A stretch of DNA of 64,000 bases, from assembly GCA_963734495.1 (NCBI GenBank), contig CAVTHK010000009.1, positions 160,001 to 224,000 of the forward strand, in the 5' to 3' direction. The notes under the pieces are model-generated. The model did no database searches. It saw only the letters and a program-made list of their open reading frames with translations, and had not been told where the DNA came from. A program made the translations under genes and the position numbers. The DNA comes from an uncultured Spirochaetota bacterium (GTDB taxonomy: Bacteria; Spirochaetota; Spirochaetia; SZUA-6; CAVTHK01). Position 1 is the first letter of the stretch. Each line of letters opens with the position of its first letter. Below are positions 6,295 to 61,015 of this stretch, one piece after another.

Positions 6295-6356
6295 CGCGCT
6301 TTTATGGGTAGCGCTTCTGGTCCGCAAGGCGCGGGTACGCCGCTACGCCGCGGCCG

Positions 6357-6620
6357 TCAAGTGGCCTCAAGCAAGCCGCTGACCGCCAGGTCGTAGTTCG
6401 GCTTCGTCCCGTCCCACAAAGGCATGTTGACGTCAGGGCCAAGGTCGAGGCCGCGCTCATAGGCCCATTCGCGCATCCAGGTGACGATGTCGTCCACCCG
6501 CTCCTGCGGCGGATTCTGCGCAAGCGACCTGCCGGAGGGCGAGTGGAAGAGGAGCTCGCCATCTGCGCCGGTGCTGATGGTCCAGCCCCCCTCATGGACC
6601 AGGCGATGATGGAAGGTGCA
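6357..6620 (-). pseudogene. 3' fragment of DUF222/HNH endonuclease gene, separated by the RIT insertion
   Basis: Reverse strand from 6620 reads CTFHHRLVHEGGWTISTGADGELLFHSPSG...LLEAT-stop (stop 6357-6359). It continues ...NLALLC at 10022 in frame. Confidence 0.9.
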
Positions 6621-6648
6621 TTATGCCGACCGCCGGATTATGCCGACT
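6618..6648. repeat. RIT left terminal inverted repeat
   Basis: GCATTATGCCGACCGCCGGATTATGCCGACT is the exact reverse complement of 9965-9995 and contains two TTATGCCG motifs. Confidence 0.95.
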
Positions 6649-6714
6649 TCGGTGGTCCACGGCCTATCGGGTCGCGGTGAAGAACGGTTTTCTCGGCTTG
6701 GGCTGGCGGCATAA

Positions 6715-7710
6715 TCAAAGCGTGCTGAGAAAGGCCAGCAGGCGGTCAGGAGGTCGGTAACGGCGGGCGGCCGCGAGGCTGGGAGCTGTCTTCGCCAGGG
6801 CCCGTTCCTTCGCGGCGAGGTCGACTGCGAGATAGACGTGGGTGGTTTCCACCGACTCGTGTCCGAGCCACAGGGCGATGACCGCGGAATCGATGCCGGC
6901 CTCGAGCATCCGAACCGCTCTGGTGTGCCGAAGAACGTGGGGGGAGACGCGTTTGTTGGCGAGCGAGGGACAGGAGGCGGCTGCGGCCTTGCTGGCATGC
7001 CTGTGCAGCCGCTTTTCGACGGCGTCGCGGCTCATGAAACCGCCACGCTGGCTTGGGAAGAGCGGATCCGTGGGCTGAGCGGGCTGTGCCCTGAGCCAGG
7101 CTCGCAGGACGCCGACGGTCTCTTTCCTCAGCGGGGTCATTCGCTCCTTCCGCCCCTTGCCCATGCAACGGACGTGGGCCCCGGGCCCTTCGAGTTCCAA
7201 GTCGGCCTGCGTCAGCCGAGTGATCTCGGAGACACGCAGTCCGGTCTGCTCGGCGAGTAGGAGCAGAGCGTGGTCGCGGCGGCCGATCCAGCTGGAGGTG
7301 TCCGGTGCCGCGAGCAAGGCATTGATCTCCTGCTGGGTGAGGAACTCGACTGTCTTTCGGTCGAACCGCTTCTGGGGGATCGCCAGCACGCGCTGGATCA
7401 ATGCGCTGTGCTCGGGAACCTCGGTGGCCGCGTAGTGGAAGAAGGCGCGGATAGCCGACAGTCGCGCGTTGCGCGAGCGGGGGGAGTTGTTCCGCTCGGT
7501 CCCCAAGGAGTCGAGGAAGGCGGTGACCATTGGGGCTTCGAGGTCGGCGAGCAGGAGGTCTGAGGGTTTTTTCCCCAGCTCTTTCTCCGCGAATCGGAGC
7601 AGCAGCCGGAAGGTGTCGCGGTAGGCGGCGATGGTGTTCGGGCTGGCTTGGCGTTGCTTGCCGAGCCGCACCAGGAAGAATGCCTCGAGAAGGGGTGCGA
7701 GGGCGCTCAT
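6715..7710 (-). CDS. Tyrosine recombinase (RIT gene C)
   Basis: Catalytic R (GLRVSE), K (GKGRKER), HVLRH, LGH and Y (THVY), with an N-terminal SAM-like domain (SPNTIAAYRDTFRLLL). Confidence 0.95.
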   Translation of the reverse strand: MSALAPLLEAFFLVRLGKQRQASPNTIAAYRDTFRLLLRFAEKELGKKPSDLLLADLEAPMVTAFLDSLGTERNNSPRSRNARLSAIRAFFHYAATEVPEHSALIQRVLAIPQKRFDRKTVEFLTQQEINALLAAPDTSSWIGRRDHALLLLAEQTGLRVSEITRLTQADLELEGPGAHVRCMGKGRKERMTPLRKETVGVLRAWLRAQPAQPTDPLFPSQRGGFMSRDAVEKRLHRHASKAAAASCPSLANKRVSPHVLRHTRAVRMLEAGIDSAVIALWLGHESVETTHVYLAVDLAAKERALAKTAPSLAAARRYRPPDRLLAFLSTL

Positions 7711-8630
7711 GTGTGCACCTCATGGGAGCGCCGGCAGCGCTCGCTGACCAAGGCGAGAAGCTCCGGAACCGCGGTCAGATACCAGTAGGTCATGGTCGGG
7801 TTGAGGTGGCCCAGGTAGGTCGACAGCAGTGGCAGCCTTGATTCCACGTCGACACCGCAGCGATACCAGCCGATGAGCGTGCGGACGGCGAAGGTGTGGC
7901 GGAGGTCGTGGATGCGCGGGCGGCGTGGGCTGCGGTTGGCGAGACCCGCCCGGTCGATGAGGCGATGGAAGCGCAAATGGACGTTGGCGTAGATGAGCGG
8001 CTTGCCGGCTCGCGAGAGGAACAGACGCGAGGAGTACTGGATGGGCAGGAGGCGGTCGCGATTGCGGGCATAACGGCCGAGGGCCTCGACGCTCGACGGG
8101 TGAAGCGGGATCTCGCGGGACTTGCCGAACTTTGACCCACGCACGACGAGCAGGCCTCGGTCGTGGTCGAGGTCACGGCGGTCGAGCCTTATGGCCTCGC
8201 CCACACGCATGCCTGTGACGGCGAGCAGGGCGAGAAGGGTCGCGTCGGTAAAGGCGCTGTGGTGATCCCGCTGTGAGCGCGCCGCCTCAAGGAGCCTGTC
8301 GATGTCGTCCTTAGAGTAGATGTAGGGCCTCAGGCGCCGGGATGCGGGCGGCAGAAGATGATGAGGCGGGACCTCGGTGCGGGGGTCAAAGGACTGTGCG
8401 TAAAGAGCGAACTGGCGGATGATGCCTAAGCGTGTGGCCCACCACCGGGGCGATGCCGCGGCCGGTTTGGTAGCCCACTGGAGGGCGAGCTTCGTCGTGA
8501 TCGAGTTGCTGCCGGCAGCGAGCACTGAGTTGACGAACTCGTGCAAGCGCCTGCCGACGTGCTGGAGCTTGTACCCCGTGGCGTGACGGGTGGCGAGGTA
8601 GTCGTCGAGGATCTGGTGGAGGTTGCTCAT
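7707..8630 (-). CDS. Tyrosine recombinase (RIT gene B)
   Basis: GMRVGEA, SKFGKSR, HDLRHTFAV, LSTYLGH and TYWYL. ATGA overlaps with both neighbours. Confidence 0.95.
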   Translation of the reverse strand: MSNLHQILDDYLATRHATGYKLQHVGRRLHEFVNSVLAAGSNSITTKLALQWATKPAAASPRWWATRLGIIRQFALYAQSFDPRTEVPPHHLLPPASRRLRPYIYSKDDIDRLLEAARSQRDHHSAFTDATLLALLAVTGMRVGEAIRLDRRDLDHDRGLLVVRGSKFGKSREIPLHPSSVEALGRYARNRDRLLPIQYSSRLFLSRAGKPLIYANVHLRFHRLIDRAGLANRSPRRPRIHDLRHTFAVRTLIGWYRCGVDVESRLPLLSTYLGHLNPTMTYWYLTAVPELLALVSERCRRSHEVHT

Positions 8631-9838
8631 GCCGCACCTCCGGGCCACGGCTGCGCGAGCTCGTGCAACCGGCAGTAGTCCACCTTGGCGTAGATCGCCG
8701 TGGTCGCGTGGTGGCGGTGACGGAGGGCCTGCGCGATCTCATCAAGGGTCGCTCCCCGGCGCAGCATCGTGGTGGCGGCGCTGTGCCGCAGCCGGTGAGC
8801 GCCGACCGGTGGCAGCTGGACGCGCTTGCAGGCGTCCCGGACGATAGAGGTAACAGCGCTGCTGCCGAGTGGGCCGTGGGGGACGTGATGGCCCAGGAAC
8901 AAGGAGCGCCAGCTCGTCTTCCTGCGCCGCCGCAGATAGGAGGCGAGCGCGCTGCCCACCTCCTCCAGAAGCGGCATGCGGTCCTCCCGCCCGCCTTTGC
9001 CACGGATGAGCAGGATGCCCTCCCGCCAGTTCACGTCGTCGAGGCTCAGAGACGCGACCTCCTTCGCTCGCAGTCCCATACGAGCCAGGAGCAAGAGGAC
9101 CGCGTAGTCGCGGCGGCCGAGGGTGGAGCGCCTGTCGCAGCTGTCGACGATGGCGTTTACTTGCTCGGGAGCGAGGTACTTCGGCAGTGAAGCCATGCGG
9201 CTGCCGGCGACCTTGGGGACGGCGCCCCTGAGGTCCATGGTGATGTCGCCCCGTAGCTGCAGATAGCGCAGGAATGAGCGAAGGCCGGTGAGCGTCGCCC
9301 GGGTCTGGTCGACGTTAGATCCCCGTGAACTGTCGAGGACGTAGCGCTTGACCGTAGCGCCGTCGAGCGAGGACAGATCCAACTCGCCAGACGGTGAGGT
9401 CTTCACCAGCAACTGCCGGGCTTCGGCGCGGTACTTCCGAGCCACACCAGGGGTGAGCCCCTGATCGTGGATCAGCGAGCCCTCGTACTCGCTCAACAGC
9501 TGCTCGAGTGGCGTCAGTGGGGAGAGTGGCGCGGCCGGGGAAGGCTCGGGTATCAGCCCCGCTCCGGCAAGGAAGCGGAGAACCGCAACGAGGCTTCCCC
9601 GGCTCAGGAACTGGGTGTAGCCTCTATCTCGCCTCGCGCAAAGGAACGAATCGACCTGCTCATCGGACAGGTCCTGTAGCCCGAGACTCTGCTCCTCGAG
9701 CCATCGGCTCAGATGACTCGCCACTCCCAGCAGATTCCTGCACGAGAGGATCGCGTAGCCCTGTCGAAGCAGGTCTGACCTGAGCTCTCGGACGTGATGC
9801 GCCAGGGGTCCGGAAAACCGGACGGTAGGAAACCGCAT
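8627..9838 (-). CDS. Tyrosine recombinase (RIT gene A)
   Basis: GLRAKEV, GKGG, HRLRHSAAT, LRH and TAIYAKVD. GGAGG RBS precedes ATG at 9838. Confidence 0.95.
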   Translation of the reverse strand: MRFPTVRFSGPLAHHVRELRSDLLRQGYAILSCRNLLGVASHLSRWLEEQSLGLQDLSDEQVDSFLCARRDRGYTQFLSRGSLVAVLRFLAGAGLIPEPSPAAPLSPLTPLEQLLSEYEGSLIHDQGLTPGVARKYRAEARQLLVKTSPSGELDLSSLDGATVKRYVLDSSRGSNVDQTRATLTGLRSFLRYLQLRGDITMDLRGAVPKVAGSRMASLPKYLAPEQVNAIVDSCDRRSTLGRRDYAVLLLLARMGLRAKEVASLSLDDVNWREGILLIRGKGGREDRMPLLEEVGSALASYLRRRRKTSWRSLFLGHHVPHGPLGSSAVTSIVRDACKRVQLPPVGAHRLRHSAATTMLRRGATLDEIAQALRHRHHATTAIYAKVDYCRLHELAQPWPGGAA

Positions 9839-9964
9839 CGTGACCTCCCTTCCCAACCAGTGGTCGGGACGAGGTCACTATGTGCCAAGCAGCCCGGATT
9901 ATGCCGCCAAGGGGATCGAGAAAAACCCTATCCGCGGCAGGAAAACCGCAGACTCGACCGAGTG

Positions 9965-9995
9965 AGTCGGCATAATCCGGCGGTCGGCATAATGC
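9965..9995. repeat. RIT right terminal inverted repeat
   Basis: AGTCGGCATAATCCGGCGGTCGGCATAATGC is the reverse complement of 6618-6648. Confidence 0.95.
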
Positions 9996-9996
9996 G

Positions 9997-10020
9997 CGTT
10001 ATGCCGACATCGGCATAACG
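9997..10020. repeat. Palindrome of recombinase-binding motifs outside the right IR
   Basis: CGTTATGCCGA-CA-TCGGCATAACG, with 11-bp arms. Confidence 0.9.
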
Positions 10021-11019
10021 TGCACAGCAATGCAAGGTTATCGAGCCTGGTCTCCCCGCCGTGCAGCCAGTGCTTTACGTGGTGCCCGTGCAGGAAGCTG
10101 GTGTGAGTGCACCCGGGAAAGGCGCAGCCGCGGTCCCGCAGCATCAAGGCCCGGCGGAGGGCGGGGGGAATGCTGCGGGTGCGGCGGCCGATGTTCAGAC
10201 TCTCCCCGTCCCCACCCACGGCCACCAGACCACAGTCACAGGCGACCCGCCGCAACGTCTCCGCGGAAACGCGCGTGCCATCATCCAGCGTAGCCGCCCA
10301 CTCTCCGTCCGCACCCAGCACCTCCTGCTCGAGATGAACCATGACCTGGAAGCGCTCCCCGCCGGTTCCCTTTACCGGATGGCCGGTCAGGAACGACTCG
10401 GCGAGCTCGACCGCGCCATCGGCCCGGGATGGCCAGCGCGTTTCCGAGGAAACGCCGGCGGCCTGCGCCGCCTGCTCGGGCTGCTCGGCCTGCACCTCCC
10501 GGGCGCGCTCGACGGCGCGCAGGATCAGGTCCGCCTCGTCGGGCTCCAGCACCAGCTCCAGCTTGACCATTCCCCCCGGCAACACCCGCCGATATACCGA
10601 CCGCTCCTCTGGCGCCGCCGCCGTCTCCTCAGCCGCCGCGGCCGCCGATAGCCCCGGCACATCCGCTCGAGCTGCGCCGCGGTTGCCACCAGCGCCATTT
10701 CCAGCAGCCTGCCCTCGTTCTCAGGTGTTGCCACTCGGGTGAGCGCGCGGACCTTGGCGTAGGAAAGGCTGGCCGAGCGGAATGCCTCGTCTATCGCGGG
10801 CAGCTTGCCGAGGGCGCGCGCGACCCGCACCTTCTCGCGTGCCGTCGCCGGATCCAGCCCGACTCGCCAGGCCAGCCAGTGGGCGCAGGAAACGGCGCCC
10901 TGGTCGCACCAGCCGCCGGCGTCGTCGAACTGCCTGATGCACTCGAGGAGCCTGTGAGTGGCGGCGTCGAGGTGCGCCGACAGGCTGGCGATCTCCTGAG
11001 CGAGCTGGTCTGTGGCCAT
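10020..11019 (-). pseudogene. DUF222/HNH endonuclease gene, 5' part (interrupted by RIT; extra frameshift near 10645)
   Basis: N-terminus (SCAHWLAWRVGL...AREKVRVARAL...LSYAKVRALTRVATPENE) is typical of DUF222 proteins. C-terminus has GRRTRSIPPALRRALMLRDRGCAFPGC..HGHHVKHWLHGGETRLDNLALLC. Confidence 0.9.
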
Positions 11020-11025
11020 GACTAT

Positions 11026-11054
11026 ACTATACATATGTATGGCTTAACATGCAA
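11026..11054 (-). promoter_or_regulatory. Promoter of HNH gene with overlapping palindrome
   Basis: Minus strand: TTGCAT, 17-bp spacer, TATAGT, 6 nt, then ATG (leaderless-like). Palindrome ATACATATGTAT at 11029-11040. Confidence 0.6.
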
Positions 11055-23094: not shown

Positions 23095-26878
<3,784 letters not shown>

Positions 26879-49176: not shown

Positions 49177-50171
49177 ATGCACAAGTACATCCTCAAGCGC
49201 CTGCTGTTCATGATCCCGACCCTGTTCGCCGTGTCGCTGGTCTCGTTCATCCTGATCCAGCTGCCTCCCGGGGACTTTCTCAGCATGCGCATCAATGCCC
49301 TCCTCGAGCAGGGCCAGACGATCGAGGTCACGATGCTGCACGACCTGCAGGAGCGCTACGGCCTCGGGCAGCCGATCTACGTGCAGTACTGGAAGTGGAT
49401 CACGGGGATCCTGCTGCGCGGCGACTTCGGCCAGTCGTTCGACTGGAACGAGCTGGTCGGGCAAGCTCATCTGGGACCGCATCGGCCTCACGATGCTGAT
49501 CTCGCTCGCGTCGCTGCTGTTCATCTGGGCGGTCGCCTTCCCCATAGGGATCTACTCCGCGGTCAAGCAGTACTCGCCGGGGGACTACATCGCGACCTTC
49601 CTCGGCTTCATCGGCATCGCGATCCCGGACTTTCTCATTGCGCTCGTGCTCATGTACGTGGCGTTCAAGTACTTCGGCTTCAGCGTGTCCGGCTTGTTCT
49701 CTGCGGACTACGTGGACGCGCCGTGGAGCTGGGGCAAGGTCGGGGACCTGCTCGCGCACATCTGGATCCCGATGATCATCATCGGGCTCGCGGGCACGGC
49801 GAGCCTGATCCGCACGATGCGCGCGAACCTGCTCGACGAGCTGAAGAAGCCCTACGTGGTCACCGCGCGGGCCAAGGGGCTTTCGGAGGTCCGGCTGATC
49901 CTCAAGTACCCGGTGCGCGTGGCGCTCAACCCCTTTATCAGCACGGTCGGCTGGATCCTGCCGACGCTGGTCTCCGGGCGCGACGATCGTCTCGATCGTG
50001 CTGAACCTGCCGACGACCGGCCCTCTGATGCTGCACGCGCTGATGACGCAGGACATGTACCTCGCGGGGGCGTTCATCCTGCTGCTGAGCACCCTCACGA
50101 TCATCGGCACGCTGCTTTCGGACATCCTCCTCGCGCTGATCGACCCGAGGATCAGGTACGCGAAACAATAG
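49177..50171 (+). CDS. Opp-type ABC permease (OppB-like; frameshifted)
   Basis: YILKRLL, LPPGDF, GDFGQSF, TARAKGL and [13 protein letters not shown]. Confidence 0.9.
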
Positions 50172-52277: not shown

Positions 52278-53264
52278 TCTACGTCGGCATCGACGAGGCC
52301 GGATACGGGCCGCTCCTCGGCCCGCTGGTGATCGCGCGCTCCGTCTTTCATGTCGAGGGCGGCAACCCGGCGGATCCCCCGTGCCTGTGGGAGCGCCTGG
52401 CGCCGTGCGTCGGCCGCGCCGCGGACCGCGGGGCGCTCGCCCGGGTGGACGACTCCAAGCGCCTGCACGCCGGCGCCGGCGGCCTCAGGCCTCTCGAGCA
52501 CGGCGTGCTCTGCGCTGCTCGCCTCCGTTCCGGCGAGCCTCGCCGCGCTCCTCGAGGAGACCGCGGCCGACGACGCTTCGGCCGCGACCACGCTGCCCTG
52601 GTACGCCGATGCGAGCGGCGGGCCCGCCCTGCCTGCCGCCGCGGACGCGGAGGAGCTGGCCGCCGCCCGCGCCGCGACCGCCGCGGCCATGGCCGCGGCG
52701 GGCGTGACGCTCGCCGAAGCGCGGGCCGCCGTCGTCTTCGAGGACCGCTTCAACCGCACCGTGGTCGAGACGGGCAACAAGGCCGCCTGCGCCTGGCGCT
52801 TCGTGGCCGGCCACCTGCGCGATGTTTGGCGGCGATACGGCGGCCGCGGCGGCCGCGGCGGCGGCGATGGCGCCGAGGCCCTGTTCGTCGCCCTCGACCG
52901 GCAGGGCGGCCGCCAGTTCTACGCGGAGCAGCTCGAGCGGCTCTTTCCCGAGGCCCGCTGCGCGGTCGGGGTCGAAAGCCCGGAGCTCTGCAGCTACGAG
53001 CTTGCCGGCGGGGGCAGGAAGCTGCGCCTCGAGGTCCGGCCGCGCGCCGAGGCGGCCCACCTGCCGGTCGCTTACGCCTCGATGGTGGCGAAATACCTGC
53101 GAGAGCTGCTCATGGCGCGCTTTCAGCGCTTCTGGAGCGAGCAGGCCCCTGACGTCCGGCCGACAGCGGGCTACCATAGCGATGGAGAGCGTTTTCTGCG
53201 GGAGCTCGCCCCGCGCCTGCGGCGGCTGGAAATTCCGGCCGGCACGCTCGTGAGGATGTGCTAG
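52274..53264 (+). CDS. RNase HII-like protein (frameshift near 52520)
   Basis: GIDEAGYGPLLGPLV, VDDSKRL, DRQGGRQFY, VAYASMVAKYLRE and TAGY. Confidence 0.75.
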
Positions 53265-60082: not shown

Positions 60083-61015
60083 ATGGAAGCCATGTACGAC
60101 AACCGGACTGACCGGCTGCTTGCGAGCGTCCTCGCTGCGCTGGCGCTGCACGCGGCGCTTCTCCTGCTCTTCGCGTTCGTCGGGGCCTTCTCGCCGTCGA
60201 CACCGCCGGTTCTTGTCTCCGTGACGCTGGAGACGCCGCAGCTTGCGGTGCAGCAGGAGTCGCGGCACGAGCACGCGGCGGCCGAGCCCGCGGCGCCGGC
60301 GTCGCCGCGCCGGCCGCGCGCGCCGCAGCGCGCCCGCGGCGGCGCCGTCGGCTGCCAACTACCAGGCGCCCAGCGCGCAGGAGCTCCAGAGGGCCATGAG
60401 CGCGCTCCGCGACAACCCGGCTCCCGTGTCGTCCGGCGACAAAGCTGCATCCGCCCTCGTACTGCCGCGGTCGACGGCTCCATCGCCTGACAACCTGGCG
60501 CCTCCTGCCGGCTACAAGCGCGAGGGGGACCTCTTGTTGCCGGCCCCCGGCGGGACCGCGGCCGCGCCGCCGCGCCAACCGGCGCAGGCGGGGCCGGCGC
60601 TCGACGTGGGCGCCTACGACCGGGCGCCGGTCCGGCGCGGCCGGCGCCGGCGCGACTGCCGCGGCGGGCGCGGCGCCGGCGAGCGGGCAGGGCCCGGCCG
60701 GCGCCGCCGCGGCGCCGCCACGGGCGACATCAGGTGGGAGACGCCGGGCGCCGCGAGGGTGATGGTAACCGACGTGCTTCCCGATATTCGAGAGGTGGCG
60801 GGATCTGCTGCCCCTGAGCGCGGAGGTCACTTTCCGGGTGGACGCCTCAGGCCTCGTGAGCAGCGTCAGCATCGTCAAGATCGAGCGGTTTCACCGAGGT
60901 CGGACAACGCGATCAGTGGCGGCGGTCGCGCCACTGGGTGTTCAAAGCGTCGCCGGGCACTCCCGCGGTGCAGGGGAGCAGGAGCATTGTCTTCAAGTCG
61001 GCCAACGCCCGCTGA
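60083..61015 (+). CDS. TonB-like energy transducer (frameshifted)
   Basis: N-terminal TM with S..H motif (SVLAALALHAALL), Pro/Ala-rich linker, and C-terminal domain pieces VTFRVDASGLVSSVSIVK...HWVFK. Confidence 0.7.

Follow-up and report, generated by a model that had tools for sequence, protein, structure and literature searches.

What is a palindrome doing beyond the inverted repeat of an element that carries three recombinase genes? The question is raised by a stretch of 64,000 nucleotides from an uncultured Spirochaetota bacterium (positions 160,001 to 224,000 of contig CAVTHK010000009.1, assembly GCA_963734495.1; hereafter the window, meaning the whole stretch), in which a 3398-base insert at 6621–10018 disrupts a DUF222-HNH gene encoded on the minus strand. 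The insert is a RIT (recombinase in trio) element lying in the Cys-Thr codons of the HNH motif. As the initial annotation of this DNA had described and our reading of the window confirmed, two inverted copies of its end motif stand beyond the right terminal inverted repeat (IR), separated from it by a spacer of 6 bases. Our comparison with related loci reveals that this cassette is a regular, element-borne and family-wide part of RIT elements, and most likely it represents the unused twin of the core through which the element integrated. The features of the insert and of its target are as follows.

6357..6620, minus strand: C-terminal part of the DUF222-HNH gene, with the stop codon at 6357–6359 (from the translation; 113 homologues align to it with their C termini)
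6615..6620: 6-base repeat where the target meets the ritC side of the insert, encoding Cys-Thr in the target gene, putative crossover or overlap region (window reading and homologue alignment)
6621..6648: terminal IR on the ritC side, a perfect repeat of 28 bases in which the end motif occurs twice in direct orientation, at a distance of 17 bases
6702..6714: subterminal copy of the motif, in the opposite orientation to the terminal copies and paired with the one at 9899–9911
6715..7710, minus strand: ritC, tyrosine recombinase of 331 amino acids with an HxxR box (Pfam Phage_integrase, E 1.3e-34; matches the third gene of related trios)
7707..8630, minus strand: ritB, tyrosine recombinase of 307 amino acids from its ATG, the listed open reading frame (ORF) extending to 8648 (Pfam Phage_integrase, E 3.7e-25)
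8627..9838, minus strand: ritA, tyrosine recombinase of 403 amino acids from its ATG, the listed ORF extending to 9856 (Pfam Phage_integrase, E 9e-32)
9899..9911: subterminal motif copy on the ritA side
9965..9992: ritA-side terminal IR, 28 bases, perfect complement of 6621–6648
9993..9998: inner spacer of the intact core site, mirror of the outer spacer 10019–10024 with one mismatch, putative relic of an earlier target overlap
9999..10018: 20-base palindrome in which the end motif of the IR recurs twice, the copies lying head to head (window reading)
10019..10024: 6-base repeat at the palindrome-side junction (window reading and homologue alignment)
10019..11034, minus strand: N-terminal part of the DUF222-HNH gene, adjoining the palindrome (Pfam DUF222 and HNH, the latter over profile positions 8–37 of 47; homologues at 62–83% identity)

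The insert is bounded by a 6-base repeat with one mismatch (6615–6620 versus 10019–10024, five of the six bases being the same). The N-terminal fragment of the HNH gene was searched against longer proteins, which gave 2054 matches, and both fragments were then compared with the best 120 of these 2054; both were matched in 113 homologues, the other seven giving no match to the C-terminal fragment. The last two residues of the N-terminal fragment (Cys-Thr) coincide with the first two residues of the C-terminal fragment in 112 of the 113, and the uninterrupted gene is thus seamless: it holds the 6 bases in a single copy and leaves no space for 26 more, which would in any case break the reading frame. 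No native palindrome was found in any of the 113 uninterrupted homologues matched to both fragments, and the sole exception to the coincidence (P0020) shows a frameshifted stretch, likewise without a palindrome. This comparison agrees with the proposal of the initial annotation that the cassette belongs to the inserted DNA, and it argues that the palindrome came with the element and is not native to the HNH gene. A Pfam scan of the C-terminal part (6357..6620) gave no match.

The palindrome at 9999–10018 consists of two 9-base arms around 2 central bases, and a perfect hairpin of 9 pairs is possible. Together with the end of the adjacent IR it makes up an intact core-type site, in which the IR arm (9983–9992) and the inner palindrome arm (9999–10008) face each other across the spacer at 9993–9998; this internal arrangement of two inverted arms around 6 bases was recognized in the initial annotation and is retained in related elements. 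The outer palindrome arm (10009–10018) would be half of the core at which the element integrated. Eight exact copies of the 8-base end motif are present in the window, on the plus strand starting at 6621, 6638, 9899 and 9999 and on the minus strand at 6707–6714, 9968–9975, 9985–9992 and 10011–10018, against an expectation of 0.75, and none of 100 shuffled sequences reached 8. All eight copies are confined to the ends of the insert, the subterminal inverted ones lying about 57 bases inward of the IRs at both ends. Palindromes with arms of at least 9 bases and a loop of at most 2 number 6 in the window versus a mean of 3.2 in 30 Markov simulations; the non-random feature is the clustering of one motif, not the size of the palindrome. 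A looser search across the window for a 10-base motif with 2 mismatches was uninformative (37 found versus 32.4 expected).

A scan of genome contigs with RitB provided 80 related loci. The IRs were located by aligning the region upstream of ritA to the reverse complement of the region downstream of ritC, and palindromes were then sought alongside, a strict palindrome being two 10-base arms with a loop of 0–2 bases and at most one mismatch. Many loci in which RitA aligned only from about residue 115 scored below 30 for IRs, and a palindrome-first scan recovered part of them. The cassette was present in 45 of the 54 assessable loci, and the 80 loci are distributed as follows.

Single strict palindrome, both IRs located: 34 loci
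Palindrome on both sides: 2 loci
Strict palindrome, far IR unlocated: 5 loci
Degenerate palindrome, recognized by eye: 4 loci
Palindrome absent, both IR ends visible: 9 loci
Unassessable (contig ends, or IRs not found): 26 loci

The geometry is constant in 35 single-palindrome structures (the window counted) and in the two double ones: the outer 6 bases, the palindrome of 10 + 10 bases, the inner 6 bases and the IR. Moreover, the palindrome arms differ from the IR motifs of their own element by means of 1.91 and 1.60 mismatches per 10 bases, compared with 2.89 for the motifs of other loci, and none of 2000 permutations reached the observed co-variation, a result that is inflated by kinship among the loci. 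The evolution of the arms clearly follows that of the element, not that of the target. Independent assemblies, complete genomes included, show the same cassette; in a plasmid collection we found only distant relatives, at about 65% identity.

The palindrome is not bound to one end of the element. It adjoins ritA in 21 of the 35 single-palindrome structures, as in the window, and ritC in the other 14. The loci L009 and L010, which lie in one genome, that of a Schaalia naturae strain, and are 99.97% identical over 3127 bases, carry their palindromes at opposite ends, and so do L039 and L044 (92.8% identical); with opposite ends in such near-identical copies, the side of the palindrome does not reflect a deep split between lineages. 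The side is tied instead to the target. Open stretches abutting the insertions (202 peptides) were translated and scanned against Pfam, and the targets recognized in this way are listed with the position of the insertion on the profile, where available.

HNH, about position 37 of 47: the window, L002, L005 and L007
Mutator-type transposase, position 255/256: L009, L010 and L013
IstB (Walker B), position 159/160: L012, L014, L020 and L057
ArdC-like zinc metallopeptidase (HExxH), position 53: 10 loci
IS66 transposase: L036 and L076
DDE_5, position 91: L052
Serine recombinase: L066

Judging from the flanks of 35 insertions, the target sites occupy one fixed position within conserved catalytic-motif codons of genes belonging to other mobile elements. 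For 23 single-palindrome insertions (4 in HNH, 3 in Mutator-type, 4 in IstB, 10 in ArdC-like and 2 in IS66 targets) the palindrome lies on the same target half in 23/23, namely the N-terminal one in HNH genes and the C-terminal one in Mutator-type, IstB, ArdC-like and IS66 targets, and the orientation of the gene trio varies while this half stays fixed. The same rule emerged from an annotation-free comparison of 68 flanks, which gave 96 homologous pairs: 50 joined palindrome side to palindrome side, 46 joined other side to other side, none was mixed, and all 96 were on the same strand relative to the element. For most loci without a palindrome, as for a lineage in which all spacers are identical, the flanks matched no Pfam family. 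Going beyond the initial annotation, these results reveal that the cassette is family-wide, that it can occupy either end, and that its side is set by the polarity of the target. Neither the either-end position nor the polarity rule appears in the passages of the RIT literature that were covered, and the side rule may still have been published elsewhere.

The spacers offer further evidence. In the 35 structures the inner spacer resembles the reverse complement of the outer one (mean of 1.11 mismatches per 6 bases, exact in 16/35) far more than the outer one read directly (mean of 3.86 mismatches per 6, exact in 1/35), and the 6 bases at the far junction match the outer spacer as a direct repeat, exactly so in 14/35. 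The single-base difference that the initial annotation had reported between the reversed inner spacer of the window and 10019–10024 was found again, and the three spacers of the window differ pairwise by 1, 1 and 2 bases. Read in reverse, the inner spacer of elements that target HNH genes begins with a Cys codon, as does the target overlap. Spacer positions next to the arms may be constrained by binding, and to the extent that they are, only the other three spacer bases would be informative.

We propose that these regularities reflect a double-stranded free form with two cores, either of which can integrate, the unused one being kept as an intact core, and we assign this reading a probability of roughly 0.55. 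In the free form the two 28-base IRs, the two 6-base spacers and the palindrome would together make one long palindrome, carrying two identical and oppositely facing cores, each composed of an IR arm, a 6-base spacer and a palindrome arm, one being the mirror image of the other. Each core would be polar, its palindrome arm joining one particular target half and its IR arm the other, with strand exchange within the 6-base spacers and the arms as putative sites of protein binding; use of one core would place the palindrome beside ritA, as in the window, and use of the other would place it beside ritC. The unused core would survive within the integrated element (in the window, the site spanning 9983–9992, 9993–9998 and 9999–10008), its inner spacer, untouched by integration, would keep a mirror-image record of an earlier target overlap, and the retained core would probably still be able to recombine with other copies of the target. 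Three kinds of junction are present in the integrated elements: target half, spacer and palindrome arm; palindrome arm, spacer and IR, which is the complete core; and IR, spacer and the other target half. The first and the third are in direct orientation and would allow excision, with a product that reads IR, spacer, palindrome, spacer, IR; the circle junction predicted in the initial annotation is required by the two-core free form as well. Two polar cores would explain at once why the cassette occurs at either end yet on a fixed side of the target, why the spacers mirror each other and why near-identical copies are permuted, and the integration in two steps that had been suggested for this element becomes unnecessary.

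Several loci carry the structures that continued recombination of a retained core would be expected to leave. At L014:8553–8572, 2.5 kb from a RIT, there is a solo palindrome with mirror-image 6-base spacers, both flanks of which are C-terminal halves of IstB reading away from it, and the palindrome-less RIT at L024:2594–6004 has N-terminal halves of IstB on both flanks, reading toward the RIT; the two correspond to the expected reciprocal products of recombination between an intact core and a fresh copy of the target on the same replicon. A palindrome is found on both sides of the element in L003 (341–360 and 3703–3722) and L026 (2569–2588 and 6016–6035), where the palindrome and 6 bases form a 26-base direct repeat and the target half of the palindrome type is found on either flank. 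These double cassettes and the solo palindrome of L014 echo only indirectly the suggestion of the initial annotation that the element may carry its own landing pad. L009 and L010 lie about 300 kb apart on one contig, in Mutator-type transposase genes, and their outer spacers are reciprocally swapped, as would be expected after an exchange between the two palindromes, that is, a large inversion. More tentatively, at slightly less than even odds, we generalize the proposal to RIT elements as a whole, which would carry a circularly permutable two-core region and insert with fixed polarity at catalytic-motif codons (HNH, the Walker B motif of IstB, the HExxH of ArdC-like proteins, and Mutator-type, IS66 and DDE transposases), with the unused core keeping a 6-base memory of a target and recombining onward to give solo palindromes, palindrome-less and double-palindrome copies and large inversions.

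A number of observations weigh against the two-core free form. The free form and its junction were not seen in this analysis, the mechanism being deduced from anatomy, and circular RIT junction reads were not found in a mobilome study (PMC5737581; published work is cited here by PMC number for the passages covered). Nine of the 54 assessable loci lack the palindrome, and one of them, L011:586–3961, has simply inserted in a gene for a Mutator-type transposase; on the side where related elements carry the palindrome it shows two additional bases beside the IR, and it needs either a secondary loss of 26 bases or a palindrome-free form. None of the three spacers is equal to another in 10 of the 35 structures, and no Rit protein can be assigned to a given arm. 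Besides, 26 of the 80 loci are unassessable, 13 (4 degenerate and 9 without a palindrome) were classed by eye from their printed ends, the loci are mutually related, making the counts non-independent events, and the closest relative of the window element among the 80 shares only 58% RitB identity. L003 is a short metagenomic contig that may be an assembly artefact.

Among the other explanations, the one that survives best is a single-stranded circle that would fold the long palindrome into a hairpin with one duplex core in its stem and the palindrome centre at its tip, to be integrated by one strand exchange followed by replication, the strand used setting whether the palindrome comes to lie beside ritA or ritC. 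The symmetry of the sequence would permit such a fold, and what it predicts for the anatomy, the side of the palindrome, the mirrored spacers and the orientation of the centre does not differ from the predictions of the double-stranded model; it is in line with the exonuclease-protected RIT DNA, the lack of circle junctions and the hairpin intermediates proposed in PMC5737581. However, only three recombinase ORFs fit in the 3.4-kb element, leaving no gene for replication or rolling-circle functions, the spacer mismatches (mean of 1.11 per 6 bases) would bulge the stem, and a solo palindrome is easily explained by double-stranded, site-by-site recombination. We know of no single-stranded stage for RITs, and we regard this possibility as unlikely.

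The centre of the palindrome bears on a second alternative, in which integration would always join the palindrome to ritA and a later flip of the trio, by recombination of the intact core with the far junction, would act as a switch. Such an inversion in place is geometrically possible, since the intact core and the far junction are inverted and the palindrome would stay on one target half. It should, however, flip the palindrome centre relative to the genes. Where the centre is asymmetric its orientation is constant relative to the genes and not to the flank in L009/L010 and in L039/L044, and the two palindromes of L026 likewise have their centres in one orientation with respect to the genes. 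These are three informative comparisons only, which limits what they can contribute to the two-core reading as well, and they make the inversion against the palindrome raised in the initial annotation improbable.

It is more improbable still that the palindrome is the footprint or deletion remnant of an earlier copy, beside which a RIT integrated in tandem or in a second step. The palindrome does correspond to the outermost motifs of the two IRs fused in head-to-head orientation, the 26-base direct repeats of L003 and L026 look like the outcome of a RIT inserting into a solo palindrome already in place, and one solo palindrome exists in L014. A tandem array nevertheless predicts direct spacers, and the observed ones are mirror images (exact in 16/35 versus 1/35 in direct orientation); it was on this orientation that a tandem or footprint origin was rejected. 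The recurrence of the same 10 + 10-base remnant in 41 strict cases from diverged lineages, with arms co-varying with the IRs, is also unlike the outcome of random deletions, and the solo palindrome of L014 stands between inverted copies of the same target half and not in an otherwise intact gene.

We consider a regulatory hairpin, acting as a terminator, attenuator or insulator of ritA expression, to be very poorly compatible with the data: a perfect hairpin of 9 pairs is possible and lies upstream of ritA in the window, but it was not called as a terminator and is not followed by a run of T, the palindrome lies downstream of ritC in 14/35 structures, and its arms are the IR end motif; a search of 6300–10400 against Rfam gave no match. 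Finally, there is next to no chance of the palindrome being a native part of the HNH gene or an artefact of assembly, for which no supporting point was found beyond the fact that such palindromes arise by chance about 3 times per window, and against which stand the 112/113 seamless homologues, the frame broken by 26 bases and the recurrence of the cassette in independent assemblies.

The element itself is an ordinary member of the known RIT family. It presents three adjacent tyrosine recombinase genes on the same strand, in fixed order and with short overlaps, each pair sharing 4 bases of start and stop codon (ritA/ritB at 8627–8630, ritB/ritC at 7707–7710), within a unit of 3398 bases with 28-base perfect IRs and the palindrome at 9999–10018. 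Of the catalytic residues, an HxxR box was located in the C-terminal domain of all three proteins, and the Pfam matches span nearly the whole of the catalytic domain. Each recombinase best matches the gene at the same position in related trios, the order ritA, ritB, ritC is kept in 75 of the 80 related loci, and the labels RitA, RitB and RitC rest on these position matches, not on published subfamily profiles. The window element shares the overlapping trio, the fixed order and a size of about 3.4–3.5 kb with the RIT elements described before (Van Houdt et al., 2009, 2012; Ricker et al., 2013), and nothing essential differs. In the published accounts the RIT genes overlap by short stretches of 4–8 bases (PMC2864759; PMC3414803) and the unit measures about 3.5 kb, with a 28–29-base inverted repeat and an overlapping palindromic sequence (PMC3414803), while RitA, RitB and RitC have been classed among the "simple", Xer-like tyrosine recombinases (PMC8138268). 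Insertions were reported into IS66 tnpA, a Tn6049-like transposase gene and radC (PMC2864759; PMC3414803), the interrupted radC and IS66 transposase genes being described in PMC2864759.

The palindrome was already in print in 2012, where it was left unexplained in the passages covered, the search for repeats being deemed unconvincing and mobility undemonstrated (PMC3414803). The mobilome study described RIT ends with imperfect palindromic repeats of 47 and 51 bases, for which hairpins were suggested, and found exonuclease-protected RIT DNA but no circular junction reads (PMC5737581). In another source the movement of RITs is listed as not tested (PMC10214605). No explanation of the palindrome was found in the literature searched; Ricker et al. 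(2013) and Van Houdt et al. (2009) lie outside that search and may say more. The "RIT" of PMC12306157 stands for rho-independent terminators and is unrelated. Indirect evidence that the element would move as a unit comes from the interrupted gene, seamless in 112/113 homologues, and from the 99.97%-identical copies L009 and L010 in one genome.

Comparison with better known systems helps to place the cassette. In Xer/dif and Cre/lox the core consists of two inverted arms around a central region of 6–8 bases in which strands are exchanged, and the window core (9983–9992, 9993–9998, 9999–10008) has this type of geometry, its binding and cleavage being putative; unlike those systems, the two cores of the RIT share a central palindrome and are accompanied by additional direct copies of the motif and by three recombinases. 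Conjugative transposons of the Tn916/CTnDOT type also use a tyrosine recombinase, with an overlap of 6–7 bases that need not match the target and a coupling sequence carried from the previous site, and the inner spacer of the window element may keep an older overlap in the same way as coupling sequences do. They have one integrase and an excisionase, no such terminal inverted repeats and no spare core, and their carried-over bases lie at the junction, whereas those of the window element lie in an internal mirror-image site. Hairpin sites are used by tyrosine recombinases in filamentous phages (CTX-phi) and in the attC sites of integrons; the window element likewise has, at one end, a pair of inverted, core-like half regions that could fold into one duplex site in single-stranded DNA, but the fold would need both IRs. 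Tn554, SE and GInt elements carry several tyrosine-recombinase-like genes, a 6-base flank in the intermediate and a fourth conserved gene (TnpC, Srap or GinD) without homology to recombinases (PMC10214605), and the window element differs from them in having three recombinase genes only, without a fourth gene, and in its 28-base IRs and palindrome.

RIT elements are widespread, and their movement has never been shown experimentally nor the need for three recombinases explained, according to the passages covered of PMC3414803 and PMC10214605. The family-wide regularities described here would offer a concrete and testable mechanism for these elements, and they supply explicit substrates for assays: the predicted junction, the two equivalent cores, the polarity rule and the predicted by-products. 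A junction that is one long perfect palindrome could account for the absence of circle junctions from short reads. The choice of targets suggests that RITs hitch-hike, travelling on other mobile DNA and disabling it, and if the core stays active they would be drivers of inversions between repeated genes.

Some further observations concern the related loci and the window itself. In most of the peptidase-targeting RITs (L017, L034, L035, L039, L040, L044, L047, L055 and L059) the first IR motif differs from the palindrome arm at the second base, which hints at two kinds of arm that might be read by different Rit proteins. In L034 (1751–1770) and L038 (1427–1458) the palindrome lies 1.0–1.6 kb upstream of the ritA match, and these elements may hold passenger DNA between the IR and ritA; L013 (1725–3277) has about 1.5 kb of additional DNA between ritA and ritB. 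At L045:2370–2432, about 670 bases upstream of the first RIT, there is the end of a second one, which belongs to another motif family and has its own palindrome, and the sequence at L045:2407–2426 was rejected as a solo palindrome because it belongs to this second element. On a plasmid of Aromatoleum aromaticum EbN1 (L081:2290–2360, NC_006824.1) a RIT is contained in a further ritC-like gene, close to the HxxR box of the latter, and is directly followed by more recombinase genes, its ends being complex, nested and uninformative. In the window, the DUF222 part of the HNH gene shifts frame near 10600–10660, where the ORF at 10525–11034 overlaps the ORF at 9899–10660 and both match homologues, so that the target gene is frameshifted as well as interrupted. 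Other short perfect palindromes of the window, unrelated to the RIT motif, are found at 52680–52699, 24697–24715, 49768–49786 and 60699–60717.

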